Below, one piece after another: positions 4,034 to 49,697 of a stretch of 53,051 nt of DNA. Position 1 is the stretch's first letter, and every line of letters begins with the position of its first letter. Origin of the DNA: a virus (Duplodnaviria; Caudoviricetes); IMG/VR virus record IMGVR_UViG_3300021368_002465, positions 1 through 53,051 of that record. One strand, written 5' to 3'. The translations under genes and the position numbers were made by a program. The notes under the pieces are model-generated. The model was not told the DNA's origin. It did no database searches and saw only the letters and a program-made list of their open reading frames with translations.

Positions 4034-4061
4034 TATTTATAATATAGGGGAATAAAGAAAA

Positions 4062-40584: not shown

Positions 40585-40803
40585 ATGAAAACACTATTAG
40601 AAAGATTAAAACCAGAAATAAAAACAACCTTGTTAGATGAACAAGAAAAATACCCAAATACTGTTGGTGAGTTACTAGAAGTTCTTGGAGAAGAAGTAGC
40701 AGTTACTCAATTAACATTGAAAAATATTAATAACTTAAGTGACTTTTCACCAAATAGAGTTAGTACTATTTTAGAAATTTACGATATGTTCGATGAAATA
40801 TAA
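40585..40803 (+). CDS. Small hypothetical protein
   Basis: MKTLLERLKPE..; tightly packed in operon. Confidence 0.65.
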   Translation: MKTLLERLKPEIKTTLLDEQEKYPNTVGELLEVLGEEVAVTQLTLKNINNLSDFSPNRVSTILEIYDMFDEI

Positions 40804-42187
40804 ATTATTACTATTATCATTATTAATTATAGGATGTACTAAAGAACCATTTGAATACGAAGATTCTACTCCTATTGGCAATCCAAAACCTACAATAGAT
40901 TTTAGAAACGAATCATATTCTAGTATAAATAATACTGTTGGTAATATTGAAAGACAAAAATGGAATCTTCACTTTAGTGATTATGATTTTATTTGGAATG
41001 AAGTTACACAAAGAACAAATGTAGATAATTATTATCCAATCTATAAAGCATCTGTACAATATGATTTCTTCGATGATGGTAAGGTGGATTTACTTGTATT
41101 TAATGCAGGTAGTGGAGAGAAAATACCAGGTCTTTATGTATTAGTAGAAGATGTACTTGAAGATAATAGAACTATAACAACCTTCCCAAGTAAATTATAT
41201 TCAGCTAATTCAGCAGTTTTATCAGATACCGATGGTGATGGTAGAAATGAAATGTTATTATTTGGTGAAAATAGTCATAACAATTCTGAGTTTGGTGGAC
41301 CTAATAATTATTTAGAAACAGGATATAGAATATTTTTTGATTCTAATAAAAATATTATAGAACAAAATATTGGTAGTGTTCCAATTGGAGTACATGATGT
41401 AACAAGTGGTGATATTGATAATGATGGTGATATAGATATTGTAGTATTTCCAACAGGTGTAAACCAAGCAACTGTAACACCAAACTTTTACTTTCCATTA
41501 AAACTAATCAATGATGGTTTTGGTAATTTTGTTGAAAAACCATTTTTTTCTGATGAGGAGTTGATAACTTCAAAATATGGTTTTAATGAATGGCTAGCAA
41601 CAACCTTTCACTTATTTGATGTAAATAATGATGGTTATTTAGATTTAGTTGGAGGTCATTATATAGGAACAGGAGACCCTAGATGGGGTGCTGAATTTAT
41701 TAAAGATAAAAAAGATTTAACCTTTACTGGTATTTTTATTTCATATGGAACATCTAGTGGAGATTATTATTACGAACAAGTTGGATATTTTTCAGAAAGT
41801 GCATTAAGTGATAAAACACAAATATTATATGGATTAACTTTTACTGATTACGATAATGATAATGATTATGATATTGTAATGAGTACATATGAAGTTGATA
41901 TAAATGGTTCATTTAATTTAGATTCTGATTCATATATAGTACACTTGTTAAAAAACGATAACAATAACTTTGTAAATGTAACTGAATCGGTAATTGATGG
42001 TTTTTCTGATTTATCTGGTACAAGATTCAGTAATTTTTATAGACCAATAATTAATGATGTAGATGATGATGGTGATTTTGATATTGTTGCAACTGCATAT
42101 AGATATGGAAACAATAATATAACTTATCCTAAATTATTATATTGGGAAAAAATTGGAAGTGGATATGTTAGAAAAGAAATTTATTAA
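40793..42187 (+). CDS. Lipoprotein with FG-GAP/VCBS (DxDxDG) repeats
   Basis: MKYKLLLLSLLIIG-C signal II; repeats DTDGDGRNE, DIDNDGDID, DVNNDGYLD, DYDNDNDYD, DVDDDGDFD. Confidence 0.8.
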   Translation: MKYKLLLLSLLIIGCTKEPFEYEDSTPIGNPKPTIDFRNESYSSINNTVGNIERQKWNLHFSDYDFIWNEVTQRTNVDNYYPIYKASVQYDFFDDGKVDLLVFNAGSGEKIPGLYVLVEDVLEDNRTITTFPSKLYSANSAVLSDTDGDGRNEMLLFGENSHNNSEFGGPNNYLETGYRIFFDSNKNIIEQNIGSVPIGVHDVTSGDIDNDGDIDIVVFPTGVNQATVTPNFYFPLKLINDGFGNFVEKPFFSDEELITSKYGFNEWLATTFHLFDVNNDGYLDLVGGHYIGTGDPRWGAEFIKDKKDLTFTGIFISYGTSSGDYYYEQVGYFSESALSDKTQILYGLTFTDYDNDNDYDIVMSTYEVDINGSFNLDSDSYIVHLLKNDNNNFVNVTESVIDGFSDLSGTRFSNFYRPIINDVDDDGDFDIVATAYRYGNNNITYPKLLYWEKIGSGYVRKEIY

Positions 42188-42230: not shown

Positions 42231-42368
42231 ATGGTAAAAACAGACTTAAAACAATTCGAAGGTATGTACTATATAGGTGATATTGTAGATGTAGATGGTG
42301 ATGGTTGGGTAGATGAAGAAACGGCAGAGTTAATCCTATTAGAACATAACGCAGGAGTTACTGAATGA
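42231..42368 (+). CDS. 45-aa acidic protein missing from the ORF track
   Basis: MVKTDLKQFEGMYYIGDIVDVDGDGWVDEETAELILLEHNAGVTE; fills the gap between promoter and polymerase; ATGA stop/start overlap with 42365. Confidence 0.65.
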   Translation: MVKTDLKQFEGMYYIGDIVDVDGDGWVDEETAELILLEHNAGVTE

Positions 42369-44293: not shown

Positions 44294-46414
44294 ATGGATT
44301 ATAAGCAACTCATAGATAAACTAGTAAGAGAACTCTCATATAGGGTAGGTGTTCCTAATATATACGATAAGGAACATCAATCTATTATATCAGAAATTCT
44401 TACAGAGTGGGGTGAGTTTGAAGCAAAACAAACTATTTTTGAATTTCTTACTGAAAAAGATGATACGATTGACCCTGAAACTGAAATTACTTATCAGAAC
44501 AAAAAGGGTGAAACAAGAAAAACGACTTATAAAACTGCTATAGCATCTAATCAAGATTCACCACAATTCAAAGCTGCAGATGCATTAAGAAACAAAACAA
44601 AAAATAAAGGTACTGAAAAACTAAAAACTTCTATAAGTGGTAAAAAGAATTATCAACATGCACCTGATGTAAATCCAGAAGTAAATAACACAGATGGAAG
44701 TAACGAACCGATAGAAATAAAATCTAATGAAGATGTAAAGGTAGAAGTTGATGAAATTCAATCTGATTTACAACAGAAAAGAGATATGGGAACTGCAGGT
44801 GCAGGTGGACCAGTTGCATCTCAAGGTGAATCTCGATATTGTAATACAATGAATACTTTGAACGTATCGGATTTCAAAGAAAAAAATAAAGAATCAATAT
44901 CAGAAAGAAAAAAAGAATTAGAATCATCTAAAAAATTAGCATCAGAATTAAGAACTGCACAAGCTTTAGGATTAGACCCTAATAGTGATGAATTTAATGA
45001 TTATCTTGCAACTCGTGAAGAATTTGCTCAACAAGAATTAGAAAGAATTAAAAATATTGATAATTCTGTATTTTATCTAAAAGGGAAAAAAGGATTTAAT
45101 GGTAAGGATGACCCATATCTTGAGTGGATGAGAGCTTCTTACGATGGTACTCTTGCAACTCGTAAAATATTAGATGAAAATACTAATATGGATATGAGTA
45201 AACCTAATACTACAATTCAATCTGAAGGTGAAATTGATGATAAAGTAGAATCTAAAATATCTAATAGATTAAAAAAGGCTACTCAAGATGGTAATCAAAA
45301 TGATATTGATTATTATAGAAATGAATTAAAATCATTCCAAAAATTTAGAAAATATCACGATACATATACTGTTGGACAGGACTCTGAAGGTAGAATGAGT
45401 GTAGTATCTATTTCAAATAAAAAAGGAGATGATTTAAGAGACCCACAAAATAATACCACACCAGCGAAACGATTTAATATTATCAAAGAACGATTTGGTC
45501 AAGATGTTGCAAAATCAGTAATAAAATCAATTGATGAAGGTATTGAGTTAGTATCAGATGTAAAAAAGGCAGCAGTTAAATCAACTAACGTAATTGATAT
45601 AGATGAAAATATTGTAAAAGTTTGTGAACTTCCACAAATGAAAAAATATATAGATACACTTGATGGTAATGCTAAGTTTGTAAAATATGTTGGGGATAAG
45701 GGTAAATCTTATGATACATTAAATACTGAAGATAAACTTAGATTAATGCAAGAACATTCTAGTTTTTTACTTGCAAATGGAAAAAATCCTGCATTTGAAC
45801 CTTATGGTAAAATTATGACAAAGGTTGGTGAGTTTACACAAACAAAAAAATTCCAACAAGAAAATCCATCTATTAATTTTGAATCATCATCAATAACACA
45901 ATGTATTACGATAAAACAAAATGAAAAAGATGCTGTTAAAAGTTCACATAATAAAGTAGTTGAAGATATAAAGGGTGCTGATGAAAAACTTGGATTTCCA
46001 AAAGATGGTAAAAACGGCCCTCATACACAAGGATACATTGGAACAGTAATGGATGCAATGCATTTTGATTCTTATATAGATGGTGGTGATGGGAAAATGA
46101 TTGTACAAATGGGAATCAGAGGAGCACAACCACAAGATATAAGAGGATGTTTAGGAGAAAAGAGTGGATACAAAGGAGATATATCTACAACTGAAGGTAG
46201 GGAAGGGTTAAAGAAACATCTTAGAGAAAAATGTAAAGTGGATTCTAAATCAGGTGCAATAATTATTACAAATGAAAATGGCTCAACCGAGATATGTGAA
46301 GATACTTGGAGAACCGCTGGTACATCACAAAAAGTAGCCAGTCATTTTGGTAAAGATATGAGAGATTGTATCTCATCTAAGGTTGATAATAGAAGAACAA
46401 CCCCCTCTGAATAA
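44294..46414 (+). CDS. Large hypothetical phage protein
   Basis: 706-aa charged ORF with late motif upstream; no family recognised. Confidence 0.7.
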   Translation: MDYKQLIDKLVRELSYRVGVPNIYDKEHQSIISEILTEWGEFEAKQTIFEFLTEKDDTIDPETEITYQNKKGETRKTTYKTAIASNQDSPQFKAADALRNKTKNKGTEKLKTSISGKKNYQHAPDVNPEVNNTDGSNEPIEIKSNEDVKVEVDEIQSDLQQKRDMGTAGAGGPVASQGESRYCNTMNTLNVSDFKEKNKESISERKKELESSKKLASELRTAQALGLDPNSDEFNDYLATREEFAQQELERIKNIDNSVFYLKGKKGFNGKDDPYLEWMRASYDGTLATRKILDENTNMDMSKPNTTIQSEGEIDDKVESKISNRLKKATQDGNQNDIDYYRNELKSFQKFRKYHDTYTVGQDSEGRMSVVSISNKKGDDLRDPQNNTTPAKRFNIIKERFGQDVAKSVIKSIDEGIELVSDVKKAAVKSTNVIDIDENIVKVCELPQMKKYIDTLDGNAKFVKYVGDKGKSYDTLNTEDKLRLMQEHSSFLLANGKNPAFEPYGKIMTKVGEFTQTKKFQQENPSINFESSSITQCITIKQNEKDAVKSSHNKVVEDIKGADEKLGFPKDGKNGPHTQGYIGTVMDAMHFDSYIDGGDGKMIVQMGIRGAQPQDIRGCLGEKSGYKGDISTTEGREGLKKHLREKCKVDSKSGAIIITNENGSTEICEDTWRTAGTSQKVASHFGKDMRDCISSKVDNRRTTPSE

Positions 46415-46921: not shown

Positions 46922-47530
46922 ATGCTAAAAGACATTCATGTTTTTGATGATATCATTTCATCAGAAAGTCAAGATTTATTAGAATCATTCGTTATCGATA
47001 CAAAAGGTTTCAAGTTTGGAAATAACTTAAAACACTTTGGAGTAAACTTTCCACAATATGTTTTTGCAAAATCATCAACTGATTCTTTCCCTCATTACAT
47101 AAATCAAATATTCACAGAAATACAACATAATACTTTATCTAAAGTTAGATTAAGTAATTCTATTAATTGGAGAACTAAAATAAATAAATTGGTATCTAAT
47201 GATAAACCATCTGATAATCCAAACTATTCAATACACATAGATAGAGATGAAGAACATTTATCTTTGGTATATTATATAAATAATTCAAGTGGAGATACTG
47301 TATTTTATAAATTAAAAGATACTTATAATATAGATAATTGGAAAGAAACAGTAATCAATGGTGAGTTTGATGCATTCACAGAAACAAATTCAATCCCACC
47401 AAAGAAAGGAAGAGTAGTTCTATTTAATGGAAAAACATTTCATAGGTCAACATATCCAACTGATGGAGATAGATTCGTAGTAAATATGAACTTTTATTAC
47501 AATAAGATACAGAATACCAAGTTATTTTGA
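46922..47530 (+). CDS. 2OG-Fe(II) oxygenase superfamily protein
   Basis: HID (HxD), LVYYIN.S.GDTVFY, PKKGRVVLFNG..FH, distal R. Confidence 0.8.
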   Translation: MLKDIHVFDDIISSESQDLLESFVIDTKGFKFGNNLKHFGVNFPQYVFAKSSTDSFPHYINQIFTEIQHNTLSKVRLSNSINWRTKINKLVSNDKPSDNPNYSIHIDRDEEHLSLVYYINNSSGDTVFYKLKDTYNIDNWKETVINGEFDAFTETNSIPPKKGRVVLFNGKTFHRSTYPTDGDRFVVNMNFYYNKIQNTKLF

Positions 47531-47571: not shown

Positions 47572-47579
47572 TATTTATA
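47572..47579 (+). promoter_or_regulatory. TATTTATA putative late promoter (representative copy)
   Basis: Same octamer shortly upstream of genes at 4034, 4645, 8847, 13567, 14842, 25404, 26727, 30311, 30911, 31942, 43622, 44279, 46475, 47572 and 50329; TACTTATA at 8795 and 27860. Confidence 0.7.
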
Positions 47580-47607: not shown

Positions 47608-49539
47608 ATGAGAGGAACAATAATTGGAAGTGATTATATCTTTGACGGAACAGATGCTAAGGTTCTAGAGATAAACACCAACACAGGAATATTCAATCAA
47701 GCATTACAATACATAGATGTAGACCCATTTTTTGACTTCTTGGAAGCAAATAATATAGAAACTTTAGAATTCATTTACAATGAAAATATTACACCTGCAA
47801 CTGGTCAATATAACTTAGGTTTCAATGGTCTCCTCGCTTCAGAATGTGAAGCTAGAGGAATTACTTACGTTCAACATGAAGTACAATCTAGTGCAATCAC
47901 AATTCCATCAGTAACAGATGCTGATGATAAATTTATCTTAAGACATGCTTACGATGTATCAGCTATTGTTGATTCAACATACTGTGCTGATAAATTTGAA
48001 TTCCTTGAGTTGATGAGTGGTTCGGATGCACTTCCAAAAACATATGTTTCATCATCTGATTTCTTATACGATACTTTAGATACAATAGATACATCAGTAA
48101 CAGATGCTCCTAATCTTATTGAAAAGGCTAGATACCCAAATTATGATTTACAGTTATATCCTAAAATGTATAGATTTACTAATTCTAGTGATTTGGCAGA
48201 TAAAAAGGCTGATATTACATCTGATAACTTCTTTATTCAAGAATATATCAAAGATGATAATAACATAGTAGATGATAGAATTACTGTAATTAGAAGTTTA
48301 GATATTATACATGGAGCTAACCTAGATATTATAAATCTAGGCTCATACAGAAACTCTTCTGTTTTACCACTATCACATGATAGTTCAACTTTTAGATTAA
48401 ATTTAGGAGCAGAAGGATTAGAATCTAGTTCGATAGATTCTTATACAAGATTTAAGTATTTGAATAAATATTCGGGTAAACAAACAATGCAATACCACAC
48501 AGATGCGGAATCTGATATTTTGATACCGAATGATGGTACTACAAATGTTGAAAGTTTAGAGGTAAGTTCTTCAGTAATTGCACCTAGATTCCAATTAATA
48601 ACTGGTTCTGAATATGATGGTAATCCAAGTGAAGAATATCAAGAACATAACGGTACTTTAGAATTAACCACATCATCACTTTCATACGAAACATCATCAG
48701 TAGTTAGTATAGTTTCGGAAAGTGTAGAAGATTTATTTGTTAGAGTAACACTTAATGATGGAACTTCATTTGATGATGCACCAGAAAACGAAATTTATAC
48801 TGTAATATCAGGTTCAAATGATATAACAAGATTTGAATTTATTAATAAATTGTTAGTAGGTGATAAGATTGTATATTTTGAAACTGGTTCAAGTAATGTA
48901 CAAACAAAAGAAATCACTTCATTGGATATAGTTTATAAAGATAACTTTTATATATACAATGTAGATATCGAACCATATGACTACTTCTTAGTTGATTCGA
49001 AAAATGACGATGGTTTATTCTCAATTCACCACAACGCATGTAACTACTGTTATACAACTTGGGCACCATGTGGTAACTATTGGTGTGACAATAACTGCTC
49101 TACTTGTTATGGTGGTTGTTTCGTAGCAGGAACTAAAGTTATATTATCAGATGGAAGTGAAATGAATATAGAAGAAATAGAACCTGGCCAGATGGTTAAA
49201 ACATTTGATACTGATGAAAATGTTGTTTCAGAAGGTTTTGTTGGTGATATTCAAGAAAAGCAAGTAGAAACACTTGTTAAGATAACATTTGATAGTGGGT
49301 TAGTTATTAAAACTACACCAGACCACCCATTCTATTTATCTAATAGAGAAGATGCAGATTATTGGACTGTGGCTGATGATATTGTAAAAGATGATGTTTG
49401 TCTTAAACTTGATGGAGGAGAACTTAAAGTAACTGAAGTAGAAATTATAGAAGAAGAAACAACAGTATATAACTTAATAGCAGTTTCTAATTTTAACAAC
49501 TTCTTTGTAGAAGGAATATTAGTACATAATAAAAAATAA
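47608..49539 (+). CDS. Polyprotein: circularly permuted ATP-grasp-like domain + degenerate Hint + six-Cys peptide + Hint
   Basis: N-terminal GSD..LEINTN, LIEK, FIQEY; Hint-1 ~297-476 ending YNVDIEPYDYFLV..HHN; peptide 477-503; Hint-2 504-641 CFVAGTKV..TPDHPF..VYNL..NFFVEGILVHN. Confidence 0.8.
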   Translation: MRGTIIGSDYIFDGTDAKVLEINTNTGIFNQALQYIDVDPFFDFLEANNIETLEFIYNENITPATGQYNLGFNGLLASECEARGITYVQHEVQSSAITIPSVTDADDKFILRHAYDVSAIVDSTYCADKFEFLELMSGSDALPKTYVSSSDFLYDTLDTIDTSVTDAPNLIEKARYPNYDLQLYPKMYRFTNSSDLADKKADITSDNFFIQEYIKDDNNIVDDRITVIRSLDIIHGANLDIINLGSYRNSSVLPLSHDSSTFRLNLGAEGLESSSIDSYTRFKYLNKYSGKQTMQYHTDAESDILIPNDGTTNVESLEVSSSVIAPRFQLITGSEYDGNPSEEYQEHNGTLELTTSSLSYETSSVVSIVSESVEDLFVRVTLNDGTSFDDAPENEIYTVISGSNDITRFEFINKLLVGDKIVYFETGSSNVQTKEITSLDIVYKDNFYIYNVDIEPYDYFLVDSKNDDGLFSIHHNACNYCYTTWAPCGNYWCDNNCSTCYGGCFVAGTKVILSDGSEMNIEEIEPGQMVKTFDTDENVVSEGFVGDIQEKQVETLVKITFDSGLVIKTTPDHPFYLSNREDADYWTVADDIVKDDVCLKLDGGELKVTEVEIIEEETTVYNLIAVSNFNNFFVEGILVHNKK

Positions 49540-49550
49540 AAGGAAAACTC

Positions 49551-49685
49551 ATGGCAAAAATTCAACCAAGACTATATAACGATATTATTTCGACTAAAAT
49601 TTCAAGTACATCCTCGGATGAAAAAACAAAAATTTCAGCTATTTTTGCAAACATAGTTCAAAGAATAAAAGACGCTAATTCATAA
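49551..49685 (+). CDS. 44-aa protein missing from the ORF track
   Basis: AAGGA RBS; MAKIQPRLYNDIISTKISSTSSDEKTKISAIFANIVQRIKDANS; 11 nt after the polyprotein stop. Confidence 0.65.
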   Translation: MAKIQPRLYNDIISTKISSTSSDEKTKISAIFANIVQRIKDANS

Positions 49686-49697
49686 ATTTTTTATTTT

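Follow-up and report, generated by a model that had tools for sequence, protein, structure and literature searches.

A phage protein family with an ATP-grasp-like domain, a degenerate Hint domain and a cysteine-rich tail: candidate autoprocessing and exchangeable C-terminal modules

Hint domains occur in several natural arrangements beside other domains. In polymorphic toxins the PT-HINT domain is thought to release the toxin, and the BUBL loci, in an arrangement reportedly laid out by Dassa et al. in 2004, are said to alternate ubiquitin-like (Ubl) and bacterial intein-like (BIL) domains. In borosin/omphalotin precursors of peptides that are ribosomally synthesised and modified after translation (RiPPs), a modifying enzyme and a C-terminal core peptide are held in one polypeptide. 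Type-A BIL domains are defined by an N-terminal Cys, a block B His and a C-terminal His-Asn pair without a nucleophile at +1 (PMC4031507). They mainly cleave both of their ends, although splicing is possible when the freed amine of the C-terminal flank attacks the N-terminal thioester (PMC4031507, PMC7664689), and the BIL2 domain of Tetrahymena transfers the C-terminus of its upstream partner to the amine of a Lys without ATP, forming an isopeptide (PMC8616854). Here we describe a protein of 643 residues (P0001) encoded by an open reading frame (ORF) of the IMG/VR virus record IMGVR_UViG_3300021368_002465, whose whole stretch of 53,051 nucleotides is called the window throughout. The protein carries a BIL-like domain (Hint-2) at its C-terminal end, preceded by a Cys-rich tail, a degenerate Hint domain (Hint-1) and a candidate ATP-grasp-like domain (N-domain; Table 1). 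With a probability of about 0.55, we take it to belong to a large, uncharacterised family of phage autoprocessing proteins, in which the tail would be cut from the body at Asn476 and Hint-2 would remove itself. The domains, their conservation, the scattered occurrence of Hint-2 and the neighbouring genes are observed, and each chemical step is inferred.

Hint-2 is a canonical Hint domain of the Hint/intein superfamily. Three Pfam families matched it past their cut-offs: Intein_splicing (PF14890, E 3e-10, 40.5 bits with a cut-off of 35.8), Hint (PF01079, E 3.9e-10, 40.1 bits with a cut-off of 29.7) and PT-HINT (PF07591, E 1e-7, 32.7 bits with a cut-off of 27.7). At E 1.7e-9, BIL2 of Tetrahymena thermophila BUBL1 (6tmm/6y75) was the best phmmer match in the PDB; a further one was the BIL of Clostridium thermocellum. 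Foldseek with the AlphaFold2 (AF2) model of the whole protein returned 66 PDB matches at E<=0.001, BIL structures first, followed by mini-inteins and hedgehog, and for Hint-2 the values were E 2.9e-12 with a template modelling (TM) score of 0.82 for 6y75 and a TM score of 0.89 for 2lwy. Seven copies of the domain from different lineages (alignment A4, 32-74% identical) share Cys1, Thr67, His70, His137 and Asn138, followed by Lys-Lys, without exception. The +1 residue is Lys in six of them and Phe in the seventh (L018), and never Cys, Ser or Thr. The Cys1, TPDH and HN-KK elements and the missing +1 nucleophile, which a preliminary description of this DNA had read from the single sequence, are borne out by the alignment, and Pfam and Foldseek agree with the Hint assignment. 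Hint-2 lacks the Cys/Ser/Thr at +1 that marks class 1 inteins and has the residues of a type-A BIL; it is a new member of this known group, with an activity predicted from the same residues.

The domain upstream of the tail, Hint-1, had been described as Hint-like, with His in place of Cys1 and without the TxxH of block B. Profile comparison agrees with this assignment: hhalign of the Hint-1 profile (A3, 53 family sequences) with the Hint-2 profile (A4) gave a probability of 95.2% (E 2.7e-8) over 115 columns, pairing His297 with Cys1 and D-A-P-E-N with the T-T-P-D-H of block B. At the positions of the Hint-2 T and H, the Hint-1 family profile has A/S and a variable residue, and the AF2 strand pattern of Hint-1 parallels that of Hint-2. 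No match of its own was obtained for Hint-1 in the Pfam scan of the window protein. Judged by homology, Hint-1 is a Hint-like domain. As it has neither the N-terminal nucleophile nor block B, no N-terminal thioester is expected, and the residues of the C-terminal half-reaction remain. His297, His475 and Asn476 are invariant in the 53 sequences and also in all 60 sequences of the whole-protein alignment, and the His475-Asn476 pair is kept before the Cys tail in 178 of 179 unique family sequences; of 54 superfamily representatives whose match reaches the end of the Hint-1 profile, 51 have it there. This retention, which the preliminary description had noted for the window protein, fits a C-terminal cleavage by Asn cyclisation, and the invariance of His-Asn across the superfamily, tail-less forms included, indicates that Asn cyclisation or a related reaction matters. 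Cleavage at Asn476 by cyclisation is a tentative prediction, to which we give a little less than even odds.

The tail between the two Hint domains (residues 477-503, ACNYCYTTWAPCGNYWCDNNCSTCYGG) contains six of the ten Cys of the ORF product, the remaining four being at positions 80, 126, 504 and 598. This agrees with the earlier observation of a six-Cys stretch of 27 aa in an otherwise Cys-poor protein; for ten Cys placed at random, the probability that at least six fall within 27 of 643 residues is ~1.25e-4. The other elements listed for this protein (HTDAESDIL at 297, DDAPENEI, HN at 475-476, Cys504, TPDH and HN-KK) were all present. Tail residues 479-501 were modeled by AF2 with a predicted local distance difference test (pLDDT) score below 50, in a whole-protein model with a mean of 82.4. 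The 60-sequence alignment shows no variation at C478, C481, C488, C497 and C500 and hardly any at G489.

The same arrangement is found in a large number of relatives. Of 8000 candidates scored, 155 were homologues of the window protein at E<=0.001, most of them ~495 aa long (491-513 aa) and covering 78% of the query, with the ending pattern '...MHN-x-C..C....CG...C...C..C..GG..K(L/I/V)'. For a census of the tails, 202 sequences (121 of the homologous proteins together with 81 ORFs of the window and the loci) were pooled, of which 179 were unique (Table 1). Tail length ranges from 24 to 37 aa, with a median of 30. The first tail Cys stands at +2 or +3 from the Asn476 position, and the residue directly after the Asn is variable, with 17 types (Pro in 19 sequences, Ala in the window) and never Cys among 178 sequences. 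The preliminary description had proposed to check in homologues whether both junctions of the tail are kept; the HN and the six-Cys tail are conserved, and 145 of 179 sequences have no Hint-2. On a FastTree phylogeny of 175 cores, from which the tail and later columns had been removed, the C-terminal type changes at least seven times and Hint-2 is placed at at least five separate positions. P0011, sister of the window clade and 61% identical, is without it. From these comparisons Hint-2 appears as an insert of patchy distribution in the family, situated just before the conserved C-terminal Lys. The forms of 578-581 aa carry an S74-like domain whose start falls exactly behind the '...GK' that forms the end of the sisters P0017, P0020 and P0021. 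Peptidase_S74 passed the Pfam cut-off (22 bits) in the more distant members P0225 (25.3 bits) and P0183 (23.2 bits) and remained below it in P0219 (21.5 bits), a fragment of L006 (17.5 bits) and P0201 (17.2 bits). The Pfam search gave no Peptidase_S74 match in P0180, the window protein is without such a domain, and in the PDB the S74-like piece of P0014 (78 aa) gave a chance match to KtrA only.

Beyond the family, the N-domain profile reached 327 clusters at 50% identity at E<=1e-3 (266 at 1e-10 and 104 at 1e-30); the proteins are 440-906 aa long, and the match lies at their N-terminus in every case. Among 144 newly listed superfamily representatives, 85 match the Hint-1 profile, 54 of them to its end. 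The region after the HN is a Cys-rich stretch of 20 to >100 aa with differing Cys patterns in some members, in others a canonical Hint whose Cys directly follows the HN (HN|C) and in yet others an S74 end, and the extreme C-terminus nearly always includes a Lys. The comparison points to a conserved body made of the N-domain and Hint-1, with the tail as variable cargo. In P0276 (906 aa), P0288 (904 aa), P0271 and P0273 two or three canonical Hints follow in tandem after the His-Asn of the degenerate Hint, some of them separated by KK, as in 'HN-KK-CF...'.

A working scheme can be proposed in which the family core would comprise the ~290-aa ATP-grasp-like N-domain, the degenerate Hint and a six-Cys, Trp/Tyr-rich tail with a Gly-rich end and a Lys, and in which the window lineage would have received a type-A BIL-like Hint (504-641) between the Gly-rich tail end and the terminal Lys. 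Hint-2 would undergo an N-S acyl shift to a thioester at Gly503|Cys504 and, with cyclisation of Asn641, remove itself, leaving on the tail a free or activated Gly503 carboxyl or a tail joined to the KK flank. The joining could proceed through the alpha-amine, as in type-A BILs, or, in the manner of Tetrahymena BIL2, through the side chain of a Lys. By joining or release, the '...GG-K' end of the Hint-free homologues would be restored. Self-removal with this outcome, or transfer of Gly503 to Lys, is favoured over simple hydrolysis because KK matches the terminal Lys of the Hint-free homologues and BIL2 forms a Lys isopeptide. In a separate step, cyclisation of Asn476 in Hint-1 would free the tail from the enzyme-like body. 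The tail would in turn be the likely substrate of the neighbouring oxygenase and, in relatives, of the products of halogenase and sulfation genes as well. That it is a released, modified peptide, possibly acted on by the ATP-grasp-like domain, is conceivable though rather doubtful.

ATP-grasp enzymes are recognised by a DK motif, an ATP-binding Lys, a QE hinge and a D/E...ExN metal hairpin, and in ordinary members this ATP/Mg hairpin lies at the C-terminal end. In the 60- and 53-sequence alignments of the present family the invariant residues of the N-domain are D9, E21, N23, K129 (DK motif), K173, Q211, E212, R229 and D232. For the circularly permuted ATP-grasp fold suggested in the preliminary description, invariant motifs stand in the expected order, but no fold or profile match is significant, so that the reading is suggestive. 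The AF2 model of the domain is of good quality (pLDDT 85.5, predicted TM score 0.83), and ATP-grasp enzymes lead the sub-threshold Foldseek lists. The best PDB match was the glutathione-synthetase-like 5oev (E 8.9e-3), the top 25 included DdlB 8evy, PurK 4ma5, ACC 5csl/5csk and PC 3tw6 (all sub-threshold), and the best match in BFVD was a viral D-Ala-D-Ala ligase (E 0.046). Pfam RimK was touched by 9/53 members at E<=5, with a best E of 0.012 and none above 21 bits, and ATP-grasp clusters appeared among ESM Atlas features at 0.91 and 0.89, at the level of a lead. When aligned by hhalign, the hairpin of residues 1-26 fell on RimK 236-265 (E 0.078, probability 0.7%, not significant); when residues 1-28 were shifted behind the rest of the domain, the result was a colinear alignment with RimK of 218 columns, of no statistical significance, in which the DK motif, the Lys strand, the QE(F/Y)I hinge and the D..ExN hairpin fall on their counterparts. 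Comparison with 117 aligned RimK sequences was not significant in the natural or in the permuted order, this set being 87-100% identical and of no diversity. On the motifs and these consistent but weak matches, the N-domain is probably a circularly permuted ATP-grasp domain, in which the last hairpin alone would have been moved to the front. A search for stand-alone N-domains gave six matches, all of them short contigs or small pieces, and hence no evidence of a split form.

The genes within 6 kb of the family gene were compared in 80 loci and the window; many of the contigs are short, so that the counts in Table 1 are lower bounds. A cassette of recurrent genes surrounds the family gene at L016:6179-11579, L041, L063 and ~50 other IMG/VR loci, outside the window, and is made up of two to four unrelated 2-oxoglutarate (2OG) oxygenases and of p252 and p187, each of which is present once or twice, besides the other genes listed. 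The gene set is kept despite rearranged order, as in L013 and L018, which argues for a functional link. An example of p96 (L016:7667-7951, 95 aa) lies directly upstream of the family gene and has the pattern CxxC...CxxCxC...C; its Pfam match to FtrD-like proteins is weak and below the cut-off (1.9e-4), and the gene was found neither in the window nor in its closest relatives L001, L002 and L008. The unrelated cassette proteins p96, p252, p187 and p231 all end in K-(T/S/N)-(I/L)-(I/L/F), an ending that could serve the proteins as a common signal or could reflect a DNA element where the genes end. The N-terminal motif of p252 and p187 resembles PRxGST, which we take to be of the sulfotransferase type; together with the NodH match of p187 (E 0.042) and the nearby APS kinase it marks both as possible sulfotransferases, a lead to which Pfam adds nothing. 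Similar clusters of dioxygenase, halogenase, sulfotransferase and PAPS synthetase genes in phages and bacteria have been described as peptide- or protein-modifying pathways with unknown substrates (PMC2938197, PMC3037559). The idea of a phage RiPP is putative, and the tailoring-enzyme cassette of the relatives backs it indirectly.

Table 1. Features of the ORF and its surroundings (positions in the window), genes neighbouring the family gene (fractions of 81 loci) and tail types in the census of unique sequences
Feature	Position	Strand	Frequency	Basis or content
Whole ORF, protein P0001, 643 aa	47608..49539 (stop codon included)	+		Open translation
N-domain, aa 1-292, candidate circularly permuted ATP-grasp-like fold	47608..48483	+		AF2, weak fold matches, motifs
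N-terminal beta-hairpin, aa 1-26, putative Mg/ATP hairpin	47608..47685	+		G7-x-D9...E21-x-N23; AF2 strands 2-13, 16-23
Hint-1, aa 297-476, degenerate Hint	48496..49035	+		His297 for Cys1, block B T..H absent, ~30-aa insert
His475-Asn476, Hint-1 end, candidate Asn-cyclisation site (N476|A477 bond)	49030..49035	+		Invariance
Cys6 aromatic-rich tail, aa 477-503	49036..49116	+		C478, C481, C488, C493, C497, C500; Gly-Gly end
Hint-2, aa 504-641, type-A BIL-like mini-Hint	49117..49530	+		Cys504, T570..H573, H640-N641; no endonuclease domain, no +1 nucleophile
Lys642-Lys643, conserved C-flank of Hint-2, equivalent to terminal Lys of Hint-free homologues	49531..49536	+	7/7 copies	
TATTTATA promoter-like motif, 29 nt upstream of the ATG of the ORF	47572..47579	+		Motif counts in window
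2OG-Fe(II) oxygenase directly upstream of the ORF	46922..47530	+	Cluster in 26/81 loci	Pfam 2OG-FeII_Oxy_3, 2.5e-7
p96, 96-aa protein			68/81 loci	Six invariant Cys
2OG oxygenase cluster a			68/81 loci	
2OG oxygenase cluster b			63/81 loci	
2OG oxygenase cluster c			26/81 loci	
p252			62/81 loci	No Pfam match
p187			54/81 loci	Weak NodH sulfotransferase match, E 0.042
Tryptophan halogenase			52/81 loci	Pfam, 1.6e-89
GDSL/DUF6071-like			35/81 loci	
DUF2061 (membrane protein)			25/81 loci	
Cytidylyltransferase-like			24/81 loci	Weak match
Radical SAM			19/81 loci	Weak match
APS kinase			19/81 loci	3.1e-18
His-Asn, then Cys within three residues			178/179	
Plain tail, no further domain			145/179	
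Hint-2 present			27/179	
S74-like extension, ~85 aa			5/179	
Cut by contig end			1/179	
No such His-Asn (P0010, 479 aa)			1/179	
Exactly six tail Cys			161/172	Plain or Hint-2-bearing tails
At least one Trp in tail			170/172	Plain or Hint-2-bearing tails
Lys in last two residues of plain tail			at least 124/145	

The window is a virus record judged to be 27% complete and contains phage genes for a tail sheath, a tape measure protein, a single-stranded DNA-binding protein (SSB), UvsX and a piece of a family-A polymerase. Its nearest cultured relative by RecA is the Microcystis phage Mel-JY01 (54.5%). On account of this relative and of the family-A polymerase piece, the family gene was ruled out as a core gene of T4-like cyanophages. 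The ORF is flanked by DNA-metabolism genes (2OG oxygenase, DUF1599, SSB, UvsX) and lies outside the tail module, which spans ~1-40 kb. At the border between the two groups of genes a 464-aa FG-GAP protein is encoded (40793..42187; Pfam FG-GAP_3, 4.2e-11). The 418-aa ORF at 42365..43621 matches family-A DNA polymerase in the C-terminal part of that enzyme only (PHROG 2.2e-15, with Pfam under its cut-off) and so hints at a polymerase that is split or a fragment, and the adjoining 706-aa ORF (44294..46414) has no family match. In IMG/VR at least 194 loci of the family were found, on contigs of up to 334 kb. A tblastn search with three members against 50,697 deposited phage records gave only intein-type matches to the Hint-2 part, and among 185,579 species genomes scanned there was one match (L082), on a 5-kb contig of an archaeal metagenome-assembled genome that is probably a phage contig binned by mistake. 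Within these searches the family was found only in uncultured phages. Its members are annotated solely as 'hypothetical protein', and no database source names the family.

The motif upstream of the ORF recurs in the window. TATAAATA occurs 21 times where 11.5 are expected, 18 of the 21 on the minus strand, that is, as TATTTATA on the plus strand. Plus-strand copies of TATTTATA were located at 4034, 8847, 13567, 14842, 25404, 26727, 30311, 43622, 44279, 46475 and 47572, and at least ten of the 18 lie 15-45 nt 5' of the start of a plus-strand ORF, the one at 47608 included. The motif is likely a promoter element common to structural and replication genes. A late promoter formed by TATAAATA was ruled out, as the motif has the opposite orientation (TATTTATA on the plus strand) and replication genes are preceded by it too. 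Downstream of the ORF, 13 nt past the stop codon, begins a small ORF of 44 codons (49552..49686), below the length covered by the ORF list, which has a good ribosome-binding site (AAGGAA).

A number of results weigh against an autoprocessing enzyme-peptide fusion. For the N-domain, Foldseek against the PDB and BFVD gave no match at E<=0.001; in the window protein it has no Pfam match and stays below the curated ATP-grasp threshold. hhalign of its profile (A2) with RimK was not significant (probability 0.5-0.7%; 0.7% with E. coli RimK), and a PDB search with the whole-family profile (A1) returned nothing relevant, the best match being a nanobody at E 0.34. Some superfamily members stop 1-9 residues (Lys-containing) after the HN of Hint-1, without a Cys tail, and since these tail-less members keep the HN, peptide release cannot be the ancestral role of the His-Asn pair. 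The six Cys with their CxxC spacing could equally form a fixed metal site that is never released. The 53-kb window contains no halogenase, p96 or p252/p187, the upstream 2OG oxygenase being its only cassette gene, and the conserved synteny of the loci could in part stem from shared ancestry of related phages.

The fixed site is the core of the alternative that survives best, in which the tail would stay in place, the protein would be an ATP-grasp-type ligase that makes or ligates a small metabolite derived from amino acids, as part of the halogenase/dioxygenase cassette, Hint-1 would be a purely structural beta-domain, the tail and His475 would build a Zn or Fe-S site and Hint-2 would be a selfish, intein-like passenger. 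The CxxC...CxxC spacing, the invariance of catalytic-type residues in the N-domain and the tail-less superfamily members all suit this proposal, and dioxygenase/halogenase clusters of cyanophages and bacteria, a part of which include ATP-grasp peptide synthetases, have been interpreted as pathways of secondary metabolism (PMC2938197). However, the His-Asn pair is kept in tail-less members and so is more than a ligand partner to the Cys residues, the length and Cys pattern of the tail vary widely, which is unusual for a cofactor site, and two kinds of self-removing module have been recruited, each leaving a defined tail end. On balance the retained tail appears unlikely, although it has to be taken seriously.

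The autoprocessing reading can be extended to a phage system of peptide making or tagging, in which the tail would be modified by the cassette, set free by Asn cyclisation and then ligated through its C-terminus. The tail would be hydroxylated, halogenated and sulfated, Hint-1 would have been reduced to an asparagine lyase, and the tail end would be ligated to a Lys of a target protein or onto the tail itself. In most phages this ligation would be carried out by the ATP-grasp domain with ATP, and in the window lineage by the BIL2-like Hint through the Gly503 thioester. We consider the full sequence of events speculative and improbable.

A third proposal places the protein in the virion, as an adhesin-type protein whose Cys-rich C-terminus would be an exposed tip decorated by the cassette, with S74 or BIL as a self-cleaving assembly module. 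The chaperone domain Peptidase_S74 typically occurs in the fibres and spikes of phages, and its presence in relatives, like the hypervariable C-termini, is in line with such a role, as are operons of hydroxylase, sulfotransferase and PAPS synthetase genes that have been proposed to modify tail-collar or collagen-like proteins (PMC2938197). Against it stand the position of the gene among those of DNA metabolism instead of the tail module, the lack of fibre-like repeats and the N-domain, whose best, if weak, fold matches are enzymes; in PHROGs the window protein matched in its Hint-2 part only, with no structural PHROG. A virion protein is quite improbable on this evidence.

The earlier proposal that the two Hints act as one cyclising system, a natural TWIN-intein pair that excises the 27-mer and cyclises it head to tail or conjugates it, drew on their complementary defects, on the Gly-Gly before Cys504 and on the resemblance of Hint-2 to BIL2, by which an upstream C-terminus is passed to an amine, but it was not borne out and is very improbable: most homologues have the tail and no Hint-2 (P0011 among them), Hint-2 is sporadic on the tree, so that cyclisation by two Hints cannot be the mechanism of the family, the freed N-terminus is not a Cys that could serve in ligation, which makes head-to-tail cyclisation unlikely, and the KK that invariably follows Hint-2 points to an acceptor or extein built into the protein in place of a distant N-terminus.

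The literature search found no paper with the domain combination of this family. Its architecture, a permuted ATP-grasp-like domain with a Hint that would act as an Asn lyase only, a variable Cys-rich cargo and interchangeable end modules, is new, and its natural analogues are the BUBL loci and the pretoxin-HINT proteins. The family offers a natural experiment in Hint chemistry, with one Hint cut down to the C-terminal half-reaction and a single site at which self-removing end modules (BIL, tandem BILs or S74) are exchanged. Its tail is a candidate substrate or partner for the dioxygenase/halogenase/sulfation clusters of aquatic phages, whose products have been unknown since 2010 (PMC2938197). 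If peptide making or tagging were real, it would amount to a ribosomal natural product of a new class or to a phage system of tagging akin to ubiquitin, and the long-sought substrate of the phage dioxygenase/halogenase clusters would be named. If cleavage and transfer take place, an Asn-lyase Hint and a compact BIL that passes a Gly carboxyl to Lys would become available as engineering tools.

The closest described system is Tetrahymena BIL2 (PDB 6TMM, 6Y75), a natural Hint between small domains and the best sequence and fold match of Hint-2; in view of BIL2/BUBL1, the earlier statement that no natural system of such architecture had been described was too strong. To the Lys acceptor of BIL2 corresponds the Lys-Lys that always follows Hint-2. 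Hint-2 differs from BIL2 in its sequence (24% identity), in the phage host, in the 27-aa Cys-rich cargo that takes the place of a ubiquitin-like domain and in its upstream partner, a degenerate Hint fused to an enzyme-like domain. With the type-A BILs it shares Cys1, the block B His, the C-terminal His-Asn and the absence of a +1 nucleophile, but in this phage protein it lies at the very C-terminus, with a C-flank of only two residues, and in distant relatives such domains stand in tandem. The PT-HINT proteins and the Hog domain of hedgehog likewise place a Hint beside variable cargo, and Hint-2 recalls both, through its Pfam match to PT-HINT and hedgehog 1at0 among the fold matches. Hint-1, unlike Hog, has no N-terminal nucleophile, and its cargo is a short Cys-rich tail and not a toxin domain. 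In other members the same C-terminal place is taken by Peptidase_S74, an intramolecular chaperone domain that begins directly behind the conserved terminal Lys. The eukaryotic glutathione synthetase family is a circularly permuted ATP-grasp group, and 5oev was the top match of the N-domain, yet with a TM score of 0.25-0.32 and a root-mean-square deviation of 14.7 Å. The fusion of an enzyme-like domain to a C-terminal peptide, with adjoining tailoring genes in relatives, recalls borosin/omphalotin precursors and RiPP pathways that halogenate peptides, from which the family differs in a putative release by Asn cyclisation of a Hint and not by a separate protease. In the available part of the paper of Iyer et al. 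from 2010 (PMC2938197) no Hint-bearing Cys-tailed protein is mentioned; the cyanophage and bacterial gene clusters described there share with the relatives of the window protein the presence of several unrelated 2OG oxygenases, a tryptophan halogenase, an APS kinase and genes resembling those of sulfotransferases.

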